Shown here: positions 8,402-33,794 of the stretch, piece after piece | How positions within the stretch are numbered: the stretch's first letter is position 1 | How the letters are laid out: every line of letters begins with the position of its first letter | DNA from: an uncultured Thermococci archaeon | Lineage (GTDB): Archaea > Methanobacteriota_B > Thermococci > Thermococcales > Thermococcaceae | Direction: 5' to 3' | Assembly: GCA_964615185.1 (NCBI GenBank) | Contig: CAZTOS010000017.1 | Location: 1 to 34,118 of the forward strand | DNA: 34,118 nt | Notes under the pieces: generated by a model | What the model saw: only the letters and a program-made list of their open reading frames with translations | Database searches by the model: none | Told to the model about the DNA's origin: nothing | Program-made: the position numbers and the translations under genes

Positions 8402-9565
8402 TTATTTTACTTTCAGGATACTTACGAGGTTTTGCTCCTCTAATTTATAAGCCACCACCACATAATTTCTATGAACTCCAATCTTGAGAGTTTGTACATT
8501 AAGAGCTTTTTGCTCGTCAATAAGTTTAATGCAGCTAATTTTCTTGGTTTTGTAATTCAAAACACATACTCCATAGATTGTTGAAGGATTTTCCTGACCT
8601 ATGCAGGGATTTGTACCTTTATAGGCGAATGCAAAGAAATGTTCATTTCCATTTCCTTTCACACTTTCAATGAACAAGCAGCTACTCATGTTCCAAATTG
8701 GAATCCTTCCCAAGATTGAGCCATTATAAGAGATTTCCACTATGTCAAAATTCGTTAGACCGTAAATTATGCCATTTGATACGGCAATTCCATGAAAACC
8801 AGATTTTCCAACATGATAGAAGTTTCTGTTATCGGTGAGTCTCCAGACAACTGAATCATTTTTGAGAGCCAGTATGTACCCACCTGTGGGATAGTAATGG
8901 ACTTCTTTAATTTTCCACTGCTTGTTATGTCTCACAACCCGCTTGTAATCACCAACACTCACAATCACTGTATCGTTAACAACCACAATTCCGCTTATTG
9001 TTCCGTTAATTTGGAACACCTTTATTCTGTCCGTAAGAATGATCAGTTTAGAGGTGTTTTTACCAGTATGCCCAAATATAAAGAATTCTTCATCCGTTTT
9101 CAAAATGTGGGGTGTCTCACTAAAAGAGAACCTCAAGTTATTGAGGAATATGGCAGTTGAATTTTGTAGCTCTATCTTCCATCCGTTAAATTCAAACACA
9201 GGTGCTGATAATCTAATGAGCTCTCCGCTGGGATATTTAACCCTATAATGCTCCCCATTGATCCTTAAAAACATGAAGTGATCTAAAAAGTAATACTCAG
9301 AAACTGTCAGCTGTTTCTCAACGGTACCGTTCTCCATACTTAAAAATTTCACCATAGAATCTTCAGGGACGAGGATTGAGTCATTACAATAGAAAAAGTT
9401 TTCTCCTTTTGCAGTCCACATCAAGGAAATGTTACCATGGAAATATGACTCGGTGGTATTTTCAAAGGAACTCTTTTGATGCTTTTCATGAATGCCTATA
9501 ACTACTGTTAGCACAACAAAAATAATAAATACAGAGAGGAAAATGTGCTTCATATTTAAATTCAT
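8402..9565 (-). CDS. Membrane-anchored extracellular protein, probable PQQ-like beta-propeller repeats
   Basis: N-terminal hydrophobic helix, beta-rich sequence (GYILALKNDSVVW), many N-x-S/T sequons; ATGA overlap with the upstream gene. Confidence 0.65.
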   Translation of the reverse strand: MNLNMKHIFLSVFIIFVVLTVVIGIHEKHQKSSFENTTESYFHGNISLMWTAKGENFFYCNDSILVPEDSMVKFLSMENGTVEKQLTVSEYYFLDHFMFLRINGEHYRVKYPSGELIRLSAPVFEFNGWKIELQNSTAIFLNNLRFSFSETPHILKTDEEFFIFGHTGKNTSKLIILTDRIKVFQINGTISGIVVVNDTVIVSVGDYKRVVRHNKQWKIKEVHYYPTGGYILALKNDSVVWRLTDNRNFYHVGKSGFHGIAVSNGIIYGLTNFDIVEISYNGSILGRIPIWNMSSCLFIESVKGNGNEHFFAFAYKGTNPCIGQENPSTIYGVCVLNYKTKKISCIKLIDEQKALNVQTLKIGVHRNYVVVAYKLEEQNLVSILKVK

Positions 9566-10836: not shown

Positions 10837-12237
10837 CTATTTTTTTGCAAAATATTGAGATGCAGTGTCATCTGGTGCAAAACATCCTCTACAATGTGCA
10901 TTCGCCCATTCACATGCCAAGCCACAATCCCCCTTATATTTACATGCTAGTACATAGGGCCATACCATTAAATTAGTTACCATCGAATATGGTGGATTCT
11001 GTGGATTTGTGGGTAGTTCTCTAAGCCAACTTTTTGAGGGATGACAGTAACCTGTGCTCATATAACAGTTATACTGAAAGATTAGATGGGTTTGTTGATA
11101 TACATGAGCCTCTCTATTATATGCAGTAGCAGTATAAAAGAATTTTATTTGGATTGATCTTATGTTAAGGTTGTATTTTCTACTCATATAATCAACGTAA
11201 GGTTTATATGTTTCAAATATCACACTTGGATTATTACTGGAAGGGAATTTGTATAAACAGTAGTCCGCAACATGAGAACTTCCACTGGGATATGTATCGG
11301 AATACATTCCTATCCATACCACAGCAGGTCTAAGATTTATAAAACGAGTTCCATCACCTAATGGATGCCCAAGGGGATCTGGACAACAGCTCACTACTTC
11401 ACCCTTTCTGATTTCTCTACAAACATACACAATATTACCGTTCTCAGTCTTTTTCCAACATTCCCATGGAGAAGGGGTAGAGCTCAAAGGCACTATGCCA
11501 ATCATTGTATTATAAAGTATTTGATTCCGTCTGGTTTCCTCTAGCGCCTCATATGCATATAGTTCATCCCTCTTCCTTAAATACTGATAAATCTCATTCC
11601 AAAGTTTTCTTTTTTCTTTGATTATTTGAAGGGCATTATTGATCGAAGCTTGGTTGTTCTTAATTTTTTCAAATGTTGTTTGAAGCTCATATTCTAAGTC
11701 CATTATTTTATTAAAAGTATCTTCTGCTAGATACCAGTATAGTCCAGCTATGTCACTTGAAGTTTTTATCTTTCTATTTATTCTATTTGCTGGTAGCAAT
11801 CTCTGAATATCCGTAGTATAATTATTAACAATTGCTTTAGTGTCGTAAGTAGTGTAAAGGTTTCTCTGATACCTCTTTAGAATCTCCTTTACAGTTTTTT
11901 GTCTCTTGTAGAACTCAAGTTCACTCCTTAAAAGTTGAACCTCATCCTCAAGCTTAACAATCTTCTCAAGGGTTTCAACACTTTTGGTTCTGTTGAGTTC
12001 TGCATAAAGTTTCTGTAATTCTGCTTCTTTTTGATTAATCACTTCAGTCAAGTTTTCAATCTTTGCATTCACCTCACTCAAAGCTTTATCAATGTCAAAA
12101 TCCTGGCAAGAACAGCTTTCACACTTCTCAGTCCTAACTTGCAAGTCCTTGACTTCCTAGAACTGCTCAGCAAAAACAAAACCAAAACTGCTAAAAACCA
12201 ACAACACAAGGATGCCCAAAACTACCCATCTTTGCAT
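10837..12237 (-). pseudogene. Secreted coiled-coil plus Cys-rich protein interrupted by an in-frame TAG at codon 27
   Basis: ATG 12237 after a G-rich RBS gives MQRWVVLGILVLLVFSSFGFVFAEQF*EVKDLQVRTEKCESCSC..., in frame with the 435-aa ORF; TAG at 12157-12159. Confidence 0.7.
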
Positions 12238-25785: not shown

Positions 25786-26727
25786 TTAGATGAGTCTCCA
25801 AATACTTTTTCTTAGGAATGTCTCTCTTAGCTGTGGTGGAGCTTTTAGCAGGGCTTCAACTAATTGCTTTTGAAAGTTAATCTGCTGAGGAATTCCAGTT
25901 TTTTCAAACTCTTCTTTGAAAGACTTTCCATCTTTTATGGACCTTGACAGTGCATAAGCGGAAATTACTGAAGGTCTTATCCCCTCGCCAGTTAGTGGAT
26001 ATACTGCTCCCAGCGCCTCTCCTATAACAGGATACTTAAAATTGTACATCTCCTCTTTTATGGCTCCGGCATAAATGTGTGCACCTTCTTTTCTTTCAAT
26101 TTTTGCATCTCTAAAACGCTCATCATTTTTAATGAAGGAATTAAGTCTCGCTTTTAAGTCAATATAACTTAAAAATCCTCCAATACCAACATTTGCCTTA
26201 TTTCCTCGTGGGAACACCCAAATATAGCCGACGAAATCAGTGTAAAACCAAATTTCTAAAACATCATCTTCGATTTTAGCATCTTTCAGTGTATATTGAT
26301 ACGTCAAAAACCTCCACCTGCTTTCATTGTAGAACATACTTCCTGTAGCAATTACAATAACATCTTCGTCTTTTGTTTTTATCATGGGTTCCTGCCCTTT
26401 GAATTTAATGAGCTTACCCAGTTTAACTTCTATGTCATTCACAAGCCATTTGATAAATGCAGGTTTGTTGAGTATATATCCCCGAGATGCCCTCTGATAA
26501 TTTTCACTCAACAACTCATTGTTGAGATACGTCCTTTGCCCACGTATTTCATTTAAAATGGACTCTTCTGGAATTTCAATGTATTTTTCTAAACTTTTTG
26601 GAACTGCCCAAGCACATGGCTTTGTTCCTAAAGATTTCCTCATTTCGTAACCTCTTACTTTAAATTCATCTTTAAGATAGTAAGCCAAAGACGCCCCTGC
26701 TATACCCATACCAACTATGTGAATCAT
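25786..26727 (-). CDS. Geranylgeranyl-reductase-family FAD-dependent oxidoreductase
   Basis: ATG 26727 after GGTGA; IVGMGIAG, KPCAW, GYIWVFP, NVGIG, IGEALGAVYPLTGEGI. Confidence 0.8.
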   Translation of the reverse strand: MIHIVGMGIAGASLAYYLKDEFKVRGYEMRKSLGTKPCAWAVPKSLEKYIEIPEESILNEIRGQRTYLNNELLSENYQRASRGYILNKPAFIKWLVNDIEVKLGKLIKFKGQEPMIKTKDEDVIVIATGSMFYNESRWRFLTYQYTLKDAKIEDDVLEIWFYTDFVGYIWVFPRGNKANVGIGGFLSYIDLKARLNSFIKNDERFRDAKIERKEGAHIYAGAIKEEMYNFKYPVIGEALGAVYPLTGEGIRPSVISAYALSRSIKDGKSFKEEFEKTGIPQQINFQKQLVEALLKAPPQLRETFLRKSIWRLI

Positions 26728-26842
26728 TAGTATCACCCAACTTAGTTGGACAAACAACTTACTAATTAAGTTTTTGCTGAAACTAATTGTCAATGTGACA
26801 ACAAGACAATAGGAGATTTTAATCTGTTTACAATATTTGGAA

Positions 26843-26907: not shown

Positions 26908-27003
26908 ATGGAGTACGAGGCACCAAAGATTGAGAAGGTTGAAGGAAAAGTTGAGCCCTATGGGACTCTCGGGGCTGCTTGCTGTTGCATTCTTCAAGAA
27001 TGA
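26908..27003 (+). CDS. Putative RiPP precursor peptide, 31 aa: MEYEAPKIEKVEGKVEPYGTLGAACCCILQE
   Basis: Below the ORF-track cutoff. Perfect GGAGGTGA RBS 6 nt before the ATG, its own promoter, YxxP leader motif, CCC near the C-terminus, directly upstream of rSAM and PqqD genes. Confidence 0.85.
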   Translation: MEYEAPKIEKVEGKVEPYGTLGAACCCILQE

Positions 27004-27027: not shown

Positions 27028-27053
27028 AAAATATTACTACAAAGGTGATGAAA

Positions 27054-28238
27054 ATGATGAAAGAGAGAAGGTTGAGAATTGATTGGCACTTAACATACAA
27101 CTGTAATCTAAACTGTCTTCACTGTGGTGTGGTAGAGTATAGGGGTAGAGATTTCATTGAAGATCTCTACCTTAACAATAATAAAAATAGAATAATAGAC
27201 ACTCTTAGGCAACAAGACTTAAATTTGTTTATAAATCTCCTTAAGAATGATGGTAAATACTTGTTTTCAATACATTTTTCACCAAATATTGGAGAATCAA
27301 CTATCCATCCAAATTTTGTAAATATCTGGAATAATGTCTCTTCGGTTGACAGAGTATATATGCTTGCGATTACAACTAATGGGATGACACTTTATAAATA
27401 CCTACCTAGGATGAATGTAGAAAAACTTAGAACCTCAATATTTAGTTTAGATGGTGATGAGAATACACATGACAAAATAAGAGGTAATGGTACTTTTAAA
27501 AAGACATATAGATCAATTCAAAAGATCGATGAGCTAAAGCAAGAAGACAGTTCTTTCTATCTCCAGATTAACTTTGTAATTAATAAAATAAATGCTGCTT
27601 CACTTAAAGAATTACCATTGTTACTAAATGAACTGAACAGCAAAAATATTGTAATAAATGTCATACCTATAGACACAACTTTTGGGAATGCTAGAATAAA
27701 TCGGAAACTACTTGAGATTCAGATTAGTGAAATAGCAAATAGCATAAATGATGCATATAAACAACTTAAAACAATTAATGCTGAAAGAATAAAAAATGGA
27801 AAATCTATCATAAAGATTCGTTTGATGGCATTTACAAGTAAACAAGCACTCCAAATTGTTAGCAAAATTCAAAATTTAAGTTTCTCTGATTTTATAATTC
27901 CTCATAAAGGATGGAAGAAATCATGTTCGGCATATAATCAGAAGGGAATATACTTGGATCCTTACGGAAATTTGTTTCCATGTGAATCATTCACTATACC
28001 TCATGTACTTGCTAGGTTCTATTCAACGAATGGTTATATACCTATTCCAAATATTTATGATGGGTTTAGCTCTATAGAGGAGATATTACATTCACAGTTT
28101 TTTTTAGCTGCAAAAAAGTGGATAAATGAACTTTATGACTTTAGTATTTGCAATTCGTGCCCAATGAAAAAATCTTGTACAGTATGTCCTATATATAGCT
28201 CTATATGGGGGGTTCCACATGACTGTTCAGCATATTAA
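27054..28238 (+). CDS. Radical SAM/SPASM-domain peptide maturase
   Basis: CNLNCLHC (CX3CX2C), ITTNG, SLDG...HDKIRG; SPASM C-X13-G-X4-C...CX2CX5CX2C...C. Exact start (27045-27057) uncertain. Confidence 0.9.
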   Translation: MMKERRLRIDWHLTYNCNLNCLHCGVVEYRGRDFIEDLYLNNNKNRIIDTLRQQDLNLFINLLKNDGKYLFSIHFSPNIGESTIHPNFVNIWNNVSSVDRVYMLAITTNGMTLYKYLPRMNVEKLRTSIFSLDGDENTHDKIRGNGTFKKTYRSIQKIDELKQEDSSFYLQINFVINKINAASLKELPLLLNELNSKNIVINVIPIDTTFGNARINRKLLEIQISEIANSINDAYKQLKTINAERIKNGKSIIKIRLMAFTSKQALQIVSKIQNLSFSDFIIPHKGWKKSCSAYNQKGIYLDPYGNLFPCESFTIPHVLARFYSTNGYIPIPNIYDGFSSIEEILHSQFFLAAKKWINELYDFSICNSCPMKKSCTVCPIYSSIWGVPHDCSAY

Positions 28239-28488
28239 ACTAAATGATGGGTGGATAATTACCGAAGATGGATTCATAGTACATTTAGTGAAAGGAGAGG
28301 TATATAAGCTTAATCATGTTGGCAAGAAGATACTACAACTAATAATGGAAGGCAAAAGCGAAAATGAGATATGCGACATAATTTCAAAAGAATACTCTGT
28401 TGATTCTAAACGAGTAAAGAGTGAATTTAGAAAATTCATAACCTCTCTAGAAGATATCGGGATAGTAGAGGTGGAGAAAGATGAATAA
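28219..28488 (+). CDS. Stand-alone PqqD-family RiPP recognition element (RRE)
   Basis: 89 aa; VYKLNHVGKKILQLI...ICDIISKEY...EFRKFITSLEDIGIV is the typical PqqD pattern. Confidence 0.88.
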   Translation: MTVQHIKLNDGWIITEDGFIVHLVKGEVYKLNHVGKKILQLIMEGKSENEICDIISKEYSVDSKRVKSEFRKFITSLEDIGIVEVEKDE

Positions 28489-29587
28489 TAAAAAGTTTAT
28501 TGGGTTAGATATAGGCGCGTCACATATAAAAGCTACATCCATAGATGAAGACTTGAATGTGAATGTAGAGATTTATCCAATTTGGAAAAGTTCACTAAAA
28601 GGGAACATAAATAGAATTAATCTAATGAATGCAGTAGTAAAGCATATTATAAAGGAGAAAATTAAGAAATATGGAAAAGTTGATGTTAATATAGTGACTT
28701 CAATTGAGATGGCGTATCCATCGTTCAACTATTTAGACTTCTTTAATAGGCTCTCACAAAACTTCTCACAAGTTAATATTTATACGATAAATGAGAAGTT
28801 TGTTGTGACTCCTCTCCATGAATTGGAATCTTGGGCGAATTTATCCGTTTCTCACGCTCTTGGATATATCGGAAGTAAATTAATAGATATGGGAATACTT
28901 ATCCATATGAATTCCTCTTCGACAATATTTGTTCCAGTGCTAGTTGGAAATGCTGTATCCCAAGAAGTTCATTACTCTTCTGGTTTAGGAATGTGGATAG
29001 GGGCATTATATACGGATATTCATATGATTAGTAATGAATCTTTCATCTTTGGGAAAAAATCACTTATATCCCCTTCTTCAGCTACAATCCTCGATATCCT
29101 ACTTGAATTAGACGAACTATCATTAAAAAACATTATGTCAGACTATAAATCACCTGTTTCGATAACAGAAGAGTACAAAAAAGACTCCTTTTATAGATTA
29201 TTAAAACTCCTTGGATGTTTCCCTACGAGAAAATACAAAAACTCACGCAGTGATAAGGAATACGACCTTAAAAATCAAGTAAAAATTTCCTCTTTATATA
29301 TTTACTATAAGTTGTTAAATATTGTTTTTGAAAACGTTATTAAGATACTGTCTGATTTGGACATCCCATTAGATAATTTGAAACTCCTTCTTAGCGGTAT
29401 AGGAAAAGATTTTATTCTCCCCGATGCTTTGTATTTATTCAATGATAAACTTATTGATGTTGAGAGTTATATTCCAAAGCCATATTGCATCTTTCTAGAA
29501 TCTTTTAGTGCCGCTCTTTCCCTCTACGAATACATTACCAACTCAAAAATAAGTTTACATGAAATTAAATGGGGGAGCGATAAATGA
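28481..29587 (+). CDS. ASKHA-fold protein, divergent MfnF / hydantoinase-A-like
   Basis: IGLDIGASHIK phosphate-1 motif; VTSIEMAY, ILIHMNSSSTIFVPV, WIGALYT and SGIGKDFI correspond by eye to MfnF-family motifs (TAELAD, LVDMGSTTTDIIPI, YTGxxRT, GxGxF). Confidence 0.55.
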   Translation: MNNKKFIGLDIGASHIKATSIDEDLNVNVEIYPIWKSSLKGNINRINLMNAVVKHIIKEKIKKYGKVDVNIVTSIEMAYPSFNYLDFFNRLSQNFSQVNIYTINEKFVVTPLHELESWANLSVSHALGYIGSKLIDMGILIHMNSSSTIFVPVLVGNAVSQEVHYSSGLGMWIGALYTDIHMISNESFIFGKKSLISPSSATILDILLELDELSLKNIMSDYKSPVSITEEYKKDSFYRLLKLLGCFPTRKYKNSRSDKEYDLKNQVKISSLYIYYKLLNIVFENVIKILSDLDIPLDNLKLLLSGIGKDFILPDALYLFNDKLIDVESYIPKPYCIFLESFSAALSLYEYITNSKISLHEIKWGSDK

Positions 29588-30351
29588 GGCAGATAAAACA
29601 GGCATGGATTATAACTAAAACAACGTTTAAGAATTGGATACGCTATCCCGAGAACATCTTTGGAATGTTTTTATATTTGGGTATCGTGGCTGTGGTTGGT
29701 TATGCTTTTTCATTATCTAAAGGAATATTAAGTGTCAATGCCGTTCCTTATTACACGGTGGGGCTTTTGATATATTCCATACTCAGCCAGCAAAACGGTG
29801 TTTATATCCAGTTTGGAATCTGGAAAGAGGATATTTTATCAAAACCAATAAAACCGGATATATTTTTATTTGGCACTTTCTTTGGAGGATTGCTGACAAC
29901 ATCCTTGCCATCAATTATGCTCTTTATGTTTGTGTTCATCATTTATAAGAGTGCGTTTGTAATAATAAACCCTGTAATATTAGGGTTAGCACTAATTTTA
30001 GGGATTCTGAGTGCTGTTGGGGTAAGCTATATCTTTGCTTCCCTTGGTTTGAGATTTCGTCCAGAAGGGATGGTAGTGACAATAGTGACATTTCTAATTT
30101 CAATATTCTCTGGCATAATGATCCCCATTTATGCTCTTCCCGAAAAAGTGAGAGTACTCTCCTACCTGATTCCCTATACTTGGGCGATAGATTTGTTTAG
30201 ATACTCTCTCTTAGGCACGGAAACAATTCTACCCACTAATGACGAACTCAAGTACTTACTCTTGAGTGTGCTGGTAACTATAGTTCTCGGAAAGCTCTAT
30301 CTTCACTACACAATAAATGCAATAAGGAAGAAGAAGGTGATAATAAGATGA
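29584..30351 (+). CDS. ABC-2 type exporter permease
   Basis: Six TM segments, FSGIMIPIYALP...LIPYTWAIDLFR. Confidence 0.88.
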   Translation: MRQIKQAWIITKTTFKNWIRYPENIFGMFLYLGIVAVVGYAFSLSKGILSVNAVPYYTVGLLIYSILSQQNGVYIQFGIWKEDILSKPIKPDIFLFGTFFGGLLTTSLPSIMLFMFVFIIYKSAFVIINPVILGLALILGILSAVGVSYIFASLGLRFRPEGMVVTIVTFLISIFSGIMIPIYALPEKVRVLSYLIPYTWAIDLFRYSLLGTETILPTNDELKYLLLSVLVTIVLGKLYLHYTINAIRKKKVIIR

Positions 30352-31199
30352 TAGCCTTTGAGGATGTTCACATTTCATATGGAAAAAATGAGGTTATCAA
30401 GGGCATAAGTTTTGAGGTCAATGAAGGAGAGATCTTCGGCATCATAGGTCATAACGGGGCAGGCAAAACAACACTCTTGAGGGCAATGGTAGGAATAATA
30501 GCTCCAGATGAAGGAAAAATTCTCGTTGATGGCATCAATCCTCTCAAAGAAAAGCCAAAAGTGGCAATGCTCTTTGAGACCACAAAAGGGCAGAGCTTTC
30601 TCCGCTTAACTCCAGTTGAGGACTTGGAGTTTTACTCCGCACTCTACGGCGTTGAAGTGGACAAAGAGAGAATTTACGAGATACTAAAAATCGTCGGATT
30701 ATACAGTGCTAAAGATGAAAAGCTTTACACTTTCAGCAGAGGAATGTGGCAGCGACAATTTCTTGCGAGAGTTTTGCTTCCAGACTTTCCAATAATAGTC
30801 TTGGATGAGCCTTGGCTTGGCTTAGATGTTTCGGCACAAAGAGAAACAGTGGAACTTCTCAAAAAGCTCAAGAAAATGGGAAAGACGATAGTTTTGACAG
30901 CTCACGAGATGCCGCTCATTGAGAGAGTCTGCGACAGAATAATGCTTATCAACAAAGGAAAGAAAGTCATTGAAGGGAGTGTTAAAGAGCTTTTAGACAG
31001 ACTGAAATGGACGTATGAAGTTTTTATAGTTGGGGACGTTGAGAGTTTAAACCCAATCAAAAGGGATGGAAAGCTTATATTCTATGTTAAAGATTTGAAA
31101 GAGTTCCTTCAAAAGTTGAATTTTTCAAAAATTGACGAGATTGATGTTAAACCAATTTCACTAGAAGAAGCTTATTTGAAGCTCATGGGTGGTGGGTAA
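30348..31199 (+). CDS. ABC-2 (DrrA/CcmA-like) exporter ATPase
   Basis: GHNGAGKTT, FSRGMWQR signature variant, IVLDEP, TAH, C-terminal SLEEAYL. Confidence 0.9.
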   Translation: MIAFEDVHISYGKNEVIKGISFEVNEGEIFGIIGHNGAGKTTLLRAMVGIIAPDEGKILVDGINPLKEKPKVAMLFETTKGQSFLRLTPVEDLEFYSALYGVEVDKERIYEILKIVGLYSAKDEKLYTFSRGMWQRQFLARVLLPDFPIIVLDEPWLGLDVSAQRETVELLKKLKKMGKTIVLTAHEMPLIERVCDRIMLINKGKKVIEGSVKELLDRLKWTYEVFIVGDVESLNPIKRDGKLIFYVKDLKEFLQKLNFSKIDEIDVKPISLEEAYLKLMGGG

Positions 31200-31879
31200 T
31201 GATTGAGGCTAAAAACGTTGAGAAGTTTTATGAGTTTGGTAAGGTCAAAGCTCTTAAGAGCATCAACTTAACCTTTGAGGATGGCAAGTTTTACATAGTC
31301 GCTGGAGCTTCTGGGAGCGGTAAGACTACTTTGCTCAACATTTTGACAGGCATTGACAAACCAACCAGCGGAAAGGTTACTGTGGATGGAAGTGACATCA
31401 CGGAGATGAAGGAGAAAGATCTCAGACGCTACCGTCTTGAGAACTTTGGAATAATCTTCCAGTTCTTTTACTTAGTGCCATATTTGACGGGCTTGGAAAA
31501 TGTTTTACTGCCAATGAAGTACTCCAAAAAGATCAAAAATCCAGAAGAGAGGGCATTAAAATTGCTGAAGCTTGTTAATGCAGAACACCTCAAAGATAAA
31601 ACGCCATCTCAAATGAGCGGCGGCGAAATGCAGAGGATTGCCATTGCAAGAGCCTTAGCAAACAAGCCTAAATACCTCTTTGCAGATGAACCAACCGCCA
31701 ATTTAGACTGGGAGAACAAGCTTCGTGTATGGAGGCTTCTGAGAAAAATAAACAAGGAGGAGAGCGTTACGGTTATAGCTTCAACCCACGAGAGGGAATT
31801 TTTCGAGTTTGCCGACGTTCTGATAATCCTCAAGGACGGTGAGGTTCATGAAATTAAAAGCAACCCTCAGAAAGCTTAA
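31199..31879 (+). CDS. LolD/MacB-type ABC ATPase
   Basis: GASGSGKTT, MSGGEMQR, ADEPTANLD. Confidence 0.92.
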   Translation: MIEAKNVEKFYEFGKVKALKSINLTFEDGKFYIVAGASGSGKTTLLNILTGIDKPTSGKVTVDGSDITEMKEKDLRRYRLENFGIIFQFFYLVPYLTGLENVLLPMKYSKKIKNPEERALKLLKLVNAEHLKDKTPSQMSGGEMQRIAIARALANKPKYLFADEPTANLDWENKLRVWRLLRKINKEESVTVIASTHEREFFEFADVLIILKDGEVHEIKSNPQKA

Positions 31880-33794
31880 ACGGGAGAAGAAAAAAGCGAT
31901 TGTTGTGTTTTTAGCATTTCTCTTCGTGAGCCTCGGTTTCAACTTTACCCTCTCGGGAATTGGTAGCATAAATAAGGCTGTTGAAAATTTTGCCAAGCTG
32001 GGGAATGTGGAGCTCGAAGTTGAAGGAGTCAGCGTTGAGGACTTAAGTAAATTTGGTGAGGTTGTAAACTATGTCTACTTCAATGACACAAAGGTTGAGT
32101 TTAACGGGAAGGAATACAGGGCAATGGTGGGTTACGGTGAGTTTAAGTCCTTCCATGTGAAAACACCTGAGGATGGTGCCATTGTTTTAGCATTCCCAGA
32201 AATAAAGAAGGGCAATAAAATCAAGATTAGGGGTAGGGAGTATGAAGTCAGGGCTTCGTACTACTACCTCATGGACATTCCCATCATCTTGGTGAACGAG
32301 AGGGGCCGGCATCTCTACGCCCTCATGCGTTGTAACAACACGGAGGCTTTGGCGGGCTTTTTAATGAAGAACGGGAAAGTTAGATATTTTCGGGTATACG
32401 AAGACGGCGAGATTCCATACATGGACAGCCTGAAGAACACCAAAAACTTCGCAATGAGCTTTTTCTATTTGCTCCTCGGCGCTTCTTTGGCAGTAGTAAT
32501 CCTGATCACAATAACACACGTCAAGGAGAACGTTAGGGAAATTGGGATTCTAAAAGCGCTCGGCATTCCAGATTCATTTACATCTTCCCTCTTTATTGGT
32601 GATTATCTTCTCGTTGCTTTAACTGCATATTTAGCTGGAATCCCACTTGGAATAGAGCTCGGCTATTCCTACATAGCCTCAAAGTTTCTAATACCAACAA
32701 GTCCAGATTATACTTACCCGCTAAAGTTCGACATCTTCATCCTGCTCGGCATAACTCTAATTCTTTCACTCCCCTACCTTTATGTTTCAAGGCTGAAAAC
32801 CATCGAAGCCCTGCGCTTTACGCCAAGGAAGAGCTCTTCGCTTAGGTTCTTTGCAACCTTCTTCATTATCTTTCTCGCCGCTTCTTCTGCATACTTTGGT
32901 ATCAGGAGCATTGAGAATTTGGTCAGCTTCAACATCCCCTACAACCTCATGGTTTGGGGCGAGCCTTTAAAAATCGCCCAAGTTCCCGGCGAAAAAGCTG
33001 GCTATTTAAGCGGGCAGAAAGTTGATGGAATAACCACAGAGATTTACTTTTTCGACTACAAAAGTATCTTTGAGAAAACCCTCGTCGCCGGCCGGTGGTT
33101 CAAGAAACCTGACGAGGCCGTTGTTGAGAAAGGCTTAGCTAAAAAGCTGAGCCTAAAGGTCGGTGATACAATTAAAGTTCAGCTCCTTGGGGAGTGGCAG
33201 GAGTACAAGGTTGTGGGCATAAGTAGCATGAACTTCTACGACTTCAAGGCGGTGTTTCTGCCGAAAGTTCCCTTCGTTCCCGATAAAGTTGCCTTCCTGA
33301 ATGTGAAAAATCCAGAAAAGCTGAGAGAGAAATATGAGAGGTTTGGTCTGGGTGCCGTCACAATGGAAGATTTGAAGAGGCAGACGAAAAGCAACTTAAT
33401 GCTCCTTAAGACCGCAGTCTACGGAGTAATTGGGATAATTTTCTTCATAAGCCTCTTTGCGCTCTTCGCTTTGATCTACCTTGAAATTGAGGGCAACGAG
33501 AAAGTTTATGCAACACTGAAAGCTATAGGCATTCCAAATTCTCACATTTGGAAGGAGTTCCTTAAGAATGCCCTGCCTTCGCTGATTGCTGGCTCGCTCT
33601 TAGCTCTGCCGATAAGCCTTAAAGTTGGAGAATACATCGGAAACATCGTTTTGCCAGCAACACTCAGCATAAGCGATTTGACCAAAGTAGTTCCGCTGTT
33701 GTTGGTGCTCTACTTACTCTATGGGATTTTCATAGTTTTGCTGACGAACAGAGCATTGAACAAGCTCAACGTAGTTAAAGCGTTGAGGAGTTAA
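31848..33794 (+). CDS. FtsX/MacB-type ABC permease with two FtsX repeats
   Basis: REIGILKALG and YATLKAIG repeats, two extracellular domains; ATG 31848. Confidence 0.88.
   Translation: MKLKATLRKLKREKKKAIVVFLAFLFVSLGFNFTLSGIGSINKAVENFAKLGNVELEVEGVSVEDLSKFGEVVNYVYFNDTKVEFNGKEYRAMVGYGEFKSFHVKTPEDGAIVLAFPEIKKGNKIKIRGREYEVRASYYYLMDIPIILVNERGRHLYALMRCNNTEALAGFLMKNGKVRYFRVYEDGEIPYMDSLKNTKNFAMSFFYLLLGASLAVVILITITHVKENVREIGILKALGIPDSFTSSLFIGDYLLVALTAYLAGIPLGIELGYSYIASKFLIPTSPDYTYPLKFDIFILLGITLILSLPYLYVSRLKTIEALRFTPRKSSSLRFFATFFIIFLAASSAYFGIRSIENLVSFNIPYNLMVWGEPLKIAQVPGEKAGYLSGQKVDGITTEIYFFDYKSIFEKTLVAGRWFKKPDEAVVEKGLAKKLSLKVGDTIKVQLLGEWQEYKVVGISSMNFYDFKAVFLPKVPFVPDKVAFLNVKNPEKLREKYERFGLGAVTMEDLKRQTKSNLMLLKTAVYGVIGIIFFISLFALFALIYLEIEGNEKVYATLKAIGIPNSHIWKEFLKNALPSLIAGSLLALPISLKVGEYIGNIVLPATLSISDLTKVVPLLLVLYLLYGIFIVLLTNRALNKLNVVKALRS

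Follow-up and report, generated by a model that had tools for sequence, protein, structure and literature searches.

Radical S-adenosylmethionine (SAM) gene clusters with a PqqD-type recognition element are a known kind among the pathways for peptides that are made on the ribosome and modified after translation (RiPPs). Sactipeptide and ranthipeptide systems combine a Cys-rich core with a SPASM-like radical SAM enzyme, a PqqD-type element and ATP-binding cassette (ABC) exporters, and a subtilosin-like Thermococcus system comprises sboA, albA and albC in excerpts of its preprint (bioRxiv 10.64898/2026.07.27.741052). In lasso peptide systems the leader is recognized through a YxxP motif, according to excerpts of PMC12710340, and lasso-type recognition modules are reused by another RiPP class, the linear polyphosphorylated peptides (LPP), according to those of PMC13381572. 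Here we examine a locus that shares features with several of these systems. It lies in a 34,118-nucleotide stretch of DNA from an uncultured archaeon of the Thermococcaceae (assembly GCA_964615185.1, contig CAZTOS010000017.1, positions 1 to 34,118), the whole of which we call the window, and the gene in question, at 28481–29587 on the + strand, encodes a protein that, although strongly diverged, is homologous over its full length to the short hydantoinase-A/MfnF branch within the ASKHA (acetate and sugar kinases/Hsc70/actin) superfamily. We propose that this ASKHA protein would be the third of the core proteins in an archaeal RiPP cassette not described before, in which precursor, radical SAM/SPASM enzyme, lasso-type PqqD, ASKHA protein and exporters would follow in that order. 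In the literature searched, no description was found of a RiPP pathway that includes a protein of the ASKHA or hydantoinase-A/MfnF type as partner.

The open reading frame (ORF) starts with ATG and encodes 368 amino acids. Its coordinates match exactly those of a first-pass annotation, which was made from the letters and an ORF list, and both motif strings quoted there occur in the translation, the phosphate-1-like GLDIGASHIK at residues 8–17 and the altered phosphate-2 string HMNSSSTI at residues 142–149. Eight close homologues share 32–57% identity with the protein over 94–100% of its length, and the homologues taken together 31–57%. When 1.84 billion cluster representatives were searched exhaustively with HMMER, 12 proteins passed E ≤ 0.001 and 8 of these also E ≤ 1e-10; judged from these sequences, the gene is real and conserved, and its family is genuine but rare. 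The MfnF-type NCBIfam model TIGR03123 aligns residues 7–344 with profile positions 1–322 of 327 (E 3.8e-6), at a score of 26.4 bits (24.8 in the genome search) that does not reach the curated cut-off of 244.1 bits. When a profile of the ASKHA family was run against PDB sequences, it matched 3c0b/3cet (Q6M145) at E 1.7e-10. Likewise, hhalign placed this profile on a comparison alignment (A4), made of 18 of the 77 PF01968/TIGR03123-type proteins collected by starting from the distant relative P0016, with a probability of 99.92% (E 4.4e-35, 343 columns).

The predicted structure was compared in the same way. An AlphaFold2 model built from an 8-row alignment (predicted local distance difference test, pLDDT, 79.9; predicted template modelling score, pTM, 0.80) had 3cet/3c0b as its top Foldseek matches at E 5e-14, with the next structures at about 1e-6. 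On realignment with VIA-align, 3cet_B reached Z 24.9 (root-mean-square deviation 4.0, 310 of 330 residues aligned), and acetone carboxylase beta (5svc_B, Z 19.9) and ROK kinases (about 15) ranked lower. The two-domain ASKHA fold with its interdomain cleft was recovered in 988 of 988 realigned chains at Z ≥ 5, a count that shows consistency and is not an independent test, since these chains were Foldseek's highest-ranked for the model; all rows shown were of ASKHA type (actins, sugar kinases, FtsA, MreB, Hsp70). The kinship with MfnF and the ASKHA fold, which the first-pass annotation had suggested from motifs and had proposed to compare with PF01968 and TIGR03123, are thus borne out by profile and structure, with a resemblance that far exceeds chance.

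With MfnF (Q6M145) the protein shares homology over its full length, the two-domain fold, a similar size, the Asp-x-Gly and GxGK(D) motifs and an Asp at about residue 205. It differs from MfnF in an identity of at most 21%, in the replacement of the loop-2 Asp, Arg and (in the main clade) Glu residues, and in having RiPP genes instead of methanofuran/tetrahydromethanopterin (H4MPT) genes as neighbours. Hydantoinase A and acetone carboxylase beta are the second-best structural class, and PF01968 is found in 30 of the 30 ESM-Atlas clusters nearest to the protein and in most of the distant relatives among the matches listed, P0016 included. Compared with the PF01968 subunits, however, the ASKHA protein is about half the size, has no PF01968 match at E ≤ 1 and lacks the acidic second-loop residues, which characterise the ATP-dependent hydantoinase A/acetone carboxylase members.

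The closest outgroup of the new family is the clade of P0016, which is 27% identical to the window protein. P0016 and P0027–P0042 form a clade of PF01968 proteins of 360–386 amino acids, some of them named from Theionarchaea metagenome-assembled genomes (MAGs), and the four clade members in the 18-row alignment keep both Asp residues of the second phosphate loop. A search of the window's phylum for P0016-like proteins gave one partial match besides the window protein. In a genome of the window's class, L025 (G116:C9) carries at 2–583 a PF01968-like protein that is partial and whose acidic second loop is intact, and at 899–1978, convergent with it, a protein with squalene-hopene-cyclase (prenyltransferase-like) repeats.

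It is worth considering whether the protein could simply be MfnF. The reaction that defines an MfnF is the condensation of F1-PP with gamma-glutamyltyramine, and the primary paper on MfnF is reported to describe departure of the diphosphate and formation of an aryl ether. Excerpts of PMC8141765 describe MfnF as ligating furfuryl diphosphate (F1-PP) to a Glu-tyrosine/tyramine unit. In the window's own genome, which is 95.6% complete, the ASKHA protein is the best and indeed the sole match to TIGR03123, but it lies at 26.4 against 244.1 bits, and no match to this model at E ≤ 1e-20 was found in 121 genomes sampled from the window's phylum. The MfnB family PF04476 reaches only 17 bits in the own genome against a cut-off of 22.4, and a PF01968 search of that genome gave no match; these searches agree with the first-pass expectation that the Thermococcales host has no methanofuran pathway. 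Given in addition the loss of the phosphate-2 Asp residues and a RiPP gene context in every locus, a genuine MfnF in methanofuran biosynthesis is hardly credible and was rejected on the sequence evidence: we infer that the ASKHA protein is not MfnF and is unconnected with methanofuran.

Specifically, residues of the second phosphate loop and of the loop after it have changed. Related ASKHA enzymes use acidic loop residues for Mg2+-phosphate binding. We set an alignment of 15 sequences of the ASKHA family against the 18-sequence comparison alignment by profile alignment, and all residue counts given here refer to these two sets. The first Asp of loop 2, invariant in the 18 sequences, is replaced by His in 10/15, by Gln in 4/15 and by Ala in 1/15; the second, equally invariant there, is aliphatic (Ile, Val, Leu or Met) in all 15, and in place of the Gly that separates the two, the ASKHA family has an invariant Asn. 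In the loop after the second phosphate motif, an Arg that is invariant in the 18 has become His or Tyr, and a likewise invariant Glu is aliphatic in 11/15 and kept in 4/15 (P0008, P0012–P0014). The earlier observation that the second phosphate motif DxGSTTTD is replaced by HMNSSSTI (both strings are those of the first-pass annotation) therefore holds column by column.

Other parts of the site have been kept. D10, G12, K17, G306 and G308 are invariant in the 15 sequences (the phosphate-1 Asp and the adenosine GxG loop), and the phosphate-1 Asp-x-Gly with its Lys and an Asp near residue 205 are also retained, as is GxGK, with the Lys of that loop absent in 2/15 of the aligned sequences. The invariants that are new to the family include Asn-Ser-x-Ser in the second phosphate loop. 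In a conservation scan of the 15 sequences by 9-residue windows (mean 2.58 bits per column, SD 0.85), the second phosphate loop ranks first at 3.86 bits per column, followed by the first phosphate loop (3.69), loop 168–176 (3.62) and the GxGK loop (3.60). The four most conserved windows thus coincide with the four cleft loops, which argues for a re-tooled ligand-binding site under strong constraint, rather than a decayed one.

These observations bear on two readings of the protein. The one we favour, tentatively and at somewhat less than an even chance, is a still-active tailoring enzyme with a re-tooled phosphate-binding cleft that acts on the Cys-Cys core of the precursor. An unlikely but serious alternative is a peptide-handling subunit that derives from an enzyme but is not catalytic; as a scaffold or chaperone it would hold the precursor bound to PqqD, or the Cys-rich core of that precursor, for the radical SAM enzyme. 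Such a subunit would be expected to lose residues that are invariant among the 18 sequences of the parent branch, and two Asp, an Arg and, in the main clade, a Glu of that kind are gone; a pure scaffold, however, would be expected to drift in its cleft, and here the cleft loops are the most conserved, with the invariant Asn-Ser-x-Ser, the phosphate-1 Asp and Lys and GxGK in place. The catalytically dead scaffold offered as one option in the first-pass annotation is accordingly left with the loss of catalytic-type residues in its favour and is weakened by the conservation of the cleft.

Three further assignments were considered for the protein and rejected. An acetate-kinase-like reading of loop 2 builds on the His that acetate kinases have in place of Asp; in the ASKHA family this His is not invariant. 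An HgdC-type iron-sulfur activase was considered as 4eht/4ehu matched in Foldseek at E 3e-6, but the 15-sequence alignment has no invariant Cys, and the assignment was rejected on that ground. A leader peptidase was considered as the cassette is without a protease; no protease family matched, and the fold is that of ASKHA proteins.

The ASKHA gene is the fourth element of a tightly packed cassette on the + strand of the window, with a divergent gene at its upstream border. Its features are as follows.

25786..26793, − strand (divergent): geranylgeranyl reductase (GGR)-family flavoprotein, 335 amino acids; PF22578 GGR_cat, E 7e-10.
26908..27003, + strand: precursor peptide, 31 amino acids, with a Tyr-Glu-x-Pro leader and a Cys-rich C-terminal core; small ORF 42 nucleotides upstream of the radical SAM gene.
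27045..28238, + strand: radical SAM enzyme, 397 amino acids, with a C-terminal Cys-rich (SPASM-like) region; PF04055, 34.3 bits against 29.5.
28219..28488, + strand: PqqD-family RiPP recognition element of the lasso B1 type, 89 amino acids; PF05402, 47.3 against 23.4 bits.
28481..29587, + strand: divergent MfnF/hydantoinase-A-like ASKHA protein, 368 amino acids; TIGR03123, hhalign, Foldseek and VIA-align.
29584..30351, + strand: ABC-2 type permease, 255 amino acids; PF01061, E 3e-12.
30348..31199, + strand: DrrA-like ABC transporter ATPase, 283 amino acids, partner of the ABC-2 permease; PF00005, E 5e-27; TIGR01188, E 9e-50 (below cut-off).
31199..31879, + strand: MacB-type ABC ATPase, 226 amino acids; PF00005, E 1e-33.
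31839..33794, + strand: FtsX/MacB-type permease, 651 amino acids; PF02687, E 1.4e-21; PF12704, E 9e-8.

The PqqD gene overlaps both of its neighbours, the radical SAM and ASKHA genes: the start of the ASKHA gene overlaps the PqqD stop by 8 nucleotides, and its own stop overlaps the permease start by 4. The first-pass description of a peptide-maturation operon around the gene is upheld by the precursor, radical SAM and PqqD genes (Pfam/NCBIfam searches and ORF scan). The radical SAM enzyme, whose translation contains CxxxCxxC, matches 45 NCBIfam radical SAM/SPASM families, all far under their cut-offs (the best, TIGR04317, at 60 against 380 bits), and found no PDB sequence at E ≤ 0.001. The G+C content is 29–33% over 27–30 kb, where the radical SAM, PqqD and ASKHA genes lie, against about 41% in the flanks, which fits a horizontally acquired island.

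This arrangement is conserved well beyond the window. Genome, metagenome and whole-genome searches yielded 14 non-redundant loci, 13 of which include the DNA just upstream of the ASKHA gene. In 12 of these 13 the PqqD gene lies directly upstream of it, and a radical SAM gene precedes PqqD in all 11 loci that extend that far; the co-occurrence with PqqD and radical SAM genes, which the first-pass annotation had proposed to look at, is therefore a tight and conserved linkage. An ABC-2 pair follows the ASKHA gene in 9 of the 13 loci that extend to this point, and in L001, L008, L022 and L023 a MacB-type ATPase follows it directly. Records under the titles Thermococcus, Thermococcaceae, Thermoplasmata and DHVE2 MAGs share the cassette order, and the named loci of the family are all from archaeal records. 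Within the window's order, the Thermococcales, the gene occurs in 6 of 99 genomes, which indicates an accessory, patchily distributed island.

Several loci show individual departures. In L012 (748–3577) a gene for a 525-amino-acid DDE transposase (PF01609) splits the ASKHA gene after about 54 codons, with PqqD still upstream. The cassette of L003 (= L007, L016; G066:C183) looks decayed or badly assembled, with many stops in a GGR-like gene and an FtsX gene split in two. In L004 (6112–7288, a DHVE2 MAG) the radical SAM enzyme is encoded by two overlapping ORFs (310 and 92 amino acids), the result of a frameshift or an assembly error.

It is informative to examine the precursors in light of the recognition protein that would bind them. 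Small precursor ORFs occur in all eight loci with upstream DNA, one or two per locus, for a total of 10 distinct peptides, which have a conserved leader and a variable core. Read by eye, all 10 contain a Tyr-Glu-x-Pro leader with an aliphatic residue two positions on, and 9 contain Cys-Cys (or CCC or CCxC) near the C-terminus, the exception being that of L003. Both L008 (2260–2593) and L023 (5311–5630) have two tandem precursor genes, each with an extra Cys upstream of Cys-Cys, and the ABC-2 pair is absent there. In G094, whose cassette is otherwise 97–99% identical, no precursor was found at the locus or elsewhere in the genome when searched with the window's DNA. There (L024, G094:C1, 1–180), identity with the window DNA stops a few bases past the precursor stop codon, and the contig ends 175 nucleotides upstream of the radical SAM gene. 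These peptides also speak to the modification targets considered at first pass. A Tyr lies close to the core in only 2 of 10 and so is not a conserved target; terminal Glu occurs in only 3 of 10 (terminal Glu or Asp in 7), and the conserved feature of the core is the Cys-Cys instead.

The recognition element is of lasso type. The best NCBIfam models for PqqD are lasso PqqD chaperones, at 37.7 bits against a cut-off of 70, and its family profile matches TbiB1 (5v1u) at E 8.5e-12. For other lasso B1 proteins the profile gives 1e-5 to 1e-4, and it reaches PqqD proper only at 0.05. Together, the YxxP leaders and the TbiB1-like PqqD indicate a lasso-type leader and recognition module that is joined here to non-lasso enzymes. 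The likeness to lasso systems such as those of TbiB1 and TfuB1 thus extends to the B1-type PqqD and to the Tyr-x-x-Pro-x-aliphatic leader of all 10 precursors, as that motif appears in excerpts of PMC12710340 and PMC13381572; in contrast, a search that covered the cassette genes found no B2 peptidase or lasso cyclase family among them, and the modifying enzymes here would be the radical SAM/SPASM protein and the ASKHA protein. The LPP systems of Bacillota likewise bring non-lasso enzymes together with a YxxP-like leader and a recognition element of lasso type, but the enzymes that the excerpts of PMC13381572 name are an HprK-like kinase, an NTP transferase and a signal-peptidase-like protease, and in those excerpts neither a radical SAM enzyme nor an ASKHA protein appears. 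Sactipeptide and ranthipeptide systems resemble the cassette in the features given at the outset; here, however, the radical SAM enzyme remains under all 45 NCBIfam cut-offs, and the precursors match no NCBIfam model (no family for any of the six tested). The gene set of the subtilosin-like Thermococcus system, as its preprint gives it in part, is a different one. On sequence evidence, then, the ASKHA protein, the precursor family and the radical SAM subfamily have no specific curated model at threshold.

With these elements in hand, the following mechanism can be proposed. The ASKHA protein would still bind a ligand and would probably be a catalytic tailoring enzyme. It might dock on the complex of PqqD and leader and modify the Cys-Cys core before or after the radical SAM step, and the modification could be a group transfer from a phosphate-bearing donor that no longer proceeds via acidic Mg2+-phosphate residues. 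A three-chain complex prediction of PqqD, precursor and, as partner, the ASKHA protein scored 0.34 against 0.01 for the best of three controls; the tool cautions that, for a guess not already likely, a pass of this kind is wrong more often than it is right. The mark used is reached by 116 of 157 solved complexes and by 2 of 215 mismatched pairs, and the passing scores of 0.60 or less belong to 18 of those 157 complexes and to both of the passing mismatches. The runs agree in at least 48% of contacts, with a partner pLDDT of at least 86.

A peptide-handling subunit without catalytic activity would draw on much of the same evidence. Translational coupling to PqqD and the predicted complex with PqqD and precursor fit it as well, the latter as weak support, and there is a precedent in crocagin biosynthesis, where CgnB and CgnE, proteins related to enzymes, bind the precursor peptide and seem to bring it to the enzyme that modifies it, according to excerpts of PMC10070186. 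As given there, the only structural relatives of CgnB and CgnE are aminopeptidases, and the two may have evolved from Zn-dependent peptidases. They differ from the protein described here in having aminopeptidase rather than ASKHA relatives and a bacterial host, and have no sequence relationship to it. Against such a role, the system already contains a dedicated leader-binding protein.

Several observations weigh against an active tailoring enzyme as we propose it. The replacement of two Asp, one Arg and one Glu in the main clade is, as read from the alignment, a loss of the kind that usually marks a pseudoenzyme, and the His that takes the place of the first Asp varies (Gln in 4/15, Ala in 1/15). 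A Pfam scan of the protein returned no families at E ≤ 1, PF01968 included, a result that the alternative of a non-catalytic subunit can also claim. The sole low-confidence stretch of the model (residues 164–175, pLDDT < 50) coincides with one of the conserved loops, so that the modelled geometry of the cleft is not reliable. The predicted complex of ASKHA protein, PqqD and precursor gives weak support; the sequence points to no particular cofactor, donor or product; and a search of sequencing runs listed 11 DNA entries and none of RNA. Finally, in G045 (L022, G045:C44, 7066–7405) the ASKHA gene is intact by MacB/FtsX genes and the precursor, radical SAM and PqqD genes have been deleted, with 32 nucleotides remaining of the old upstream region.

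This last locus could also be taken to mean that the protein is not a maturation enzyme but an export or self-protection accessory that works with the MacB/FtsX transporter, a role that we consider very unlikely. The intact gene beside MacB ATPase and FtsX in G045, with the maturation genes gone, and the four loci in which a MacB-type ATPase follows directly would agree with such a role. However, P0006, the protein of G045, falls into one 90%-identity cluster with P0024, which comes from a locus of the same kind elsewhere, and the GGR-like neighbour in G045 is fragmented; the deletion therefore looks recent and the whole locus appears to be decaying. Furthermore, the ABC-2 pair separates the ASKHA gene from the MacB genes in 9 of 13 loci, and its constant neighbour is PqqD (12/13).

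The divergent GGR-like gene invites a more specific idea of the chemistry. The GGR-like protein scores 111.7 bits with TIGR02032 against a cut-off of 158.8 and lies far below the housekeeping lipid-reductase models, and on this sequence comparison it is not a housekeeping lipid reductase. Of the order's 99 genomes, the 6 with the ASKHA gene are exactly those that have close homologues (57–92% identity), and the other three matches are weak, at 30–32% identity. A GGR_cat/FAD_binding_3 protein holds the same position in the distant locus L013; in loci L002, L004 and L015 the gene was not found, and in G066, as in G045, it is fragmented. It may be an optional accessory or a passenger of the same island.

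One could imagine on this basis that the ASKHA protein is an MfnF-type S-alkyl (prenyl) transferase, in which a core Cys thiol would displace the diphosphate of an alkyl or prenyl diphosphate, for example geranylgeranyl diphosphate, with the GGR-like flavoprotein saturating the chain; we regard this scheme as distinctly unlikely. It would account for the Cys-Cys, Cys-x-Cys or Cys-Cys-Cys near the C-terminus of 9 of 10 precursors, a motif that the prenylation motifs of eukaryotic Rab proteins resemble, and for a GGR-family paralogue, other than the housekeeping reductase, that occurs in the same 6 of 99 genomes and recurs in L013. The only characterised relative, MfnF, moreover ligates a furfuryl diphosphate (F1-PP), according to excerpts of PMC8141765. 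Yet the acidic residues lost here are those expected to hold the Mg-diphosphate, the GGR-like gene is not in L002, L004 or L015 and may simply travel with the island in Thermococcus, and the scheme leaves no role for the radical SAM enzyme. The literature search found no paper pairing a geranylgeranyl reductase with a RiPP, which makes prenylation unprecedented and does not support it.

The rest of the window is ordinary chromosome, with genes for glycerol uptake and glycerol kinase, aldehyde ferredoxin oxidoreductase, triosephosphate isomerase, TrmB and a sugar ABC system. Two ORFs on its − strand, at 8402–9565 (387 amino acids) and 10837–12144 (435 amino acids), match no Pfam family at E ≤ 1e-5 and flank a beta-propeller (PQQ_2-like) protein.

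Within the biology of RiPPs, the cassette is a clear case of module reuse between RiPP classes and across domains. NCBI lists the cultured Thermococcus eurythermalis as source of a member of the protein cluster that holds P0024 and the P0006 of G045, which makes bench testing feasible. If prenylation were to prove true, the peptide leaving through the MacB/FtsX pump would be the first RiPP of archaea to be thioether-lipidated, and if the ASKHA protein is non-catalytic, it would be a second example of an enzyme-derived peptide-handling subunit. If it is catalytic, as we tentatively favour, the cassette would hold a new chemistry of peptide tailoring, in which thermostable proteins act on vicinal cysteines.

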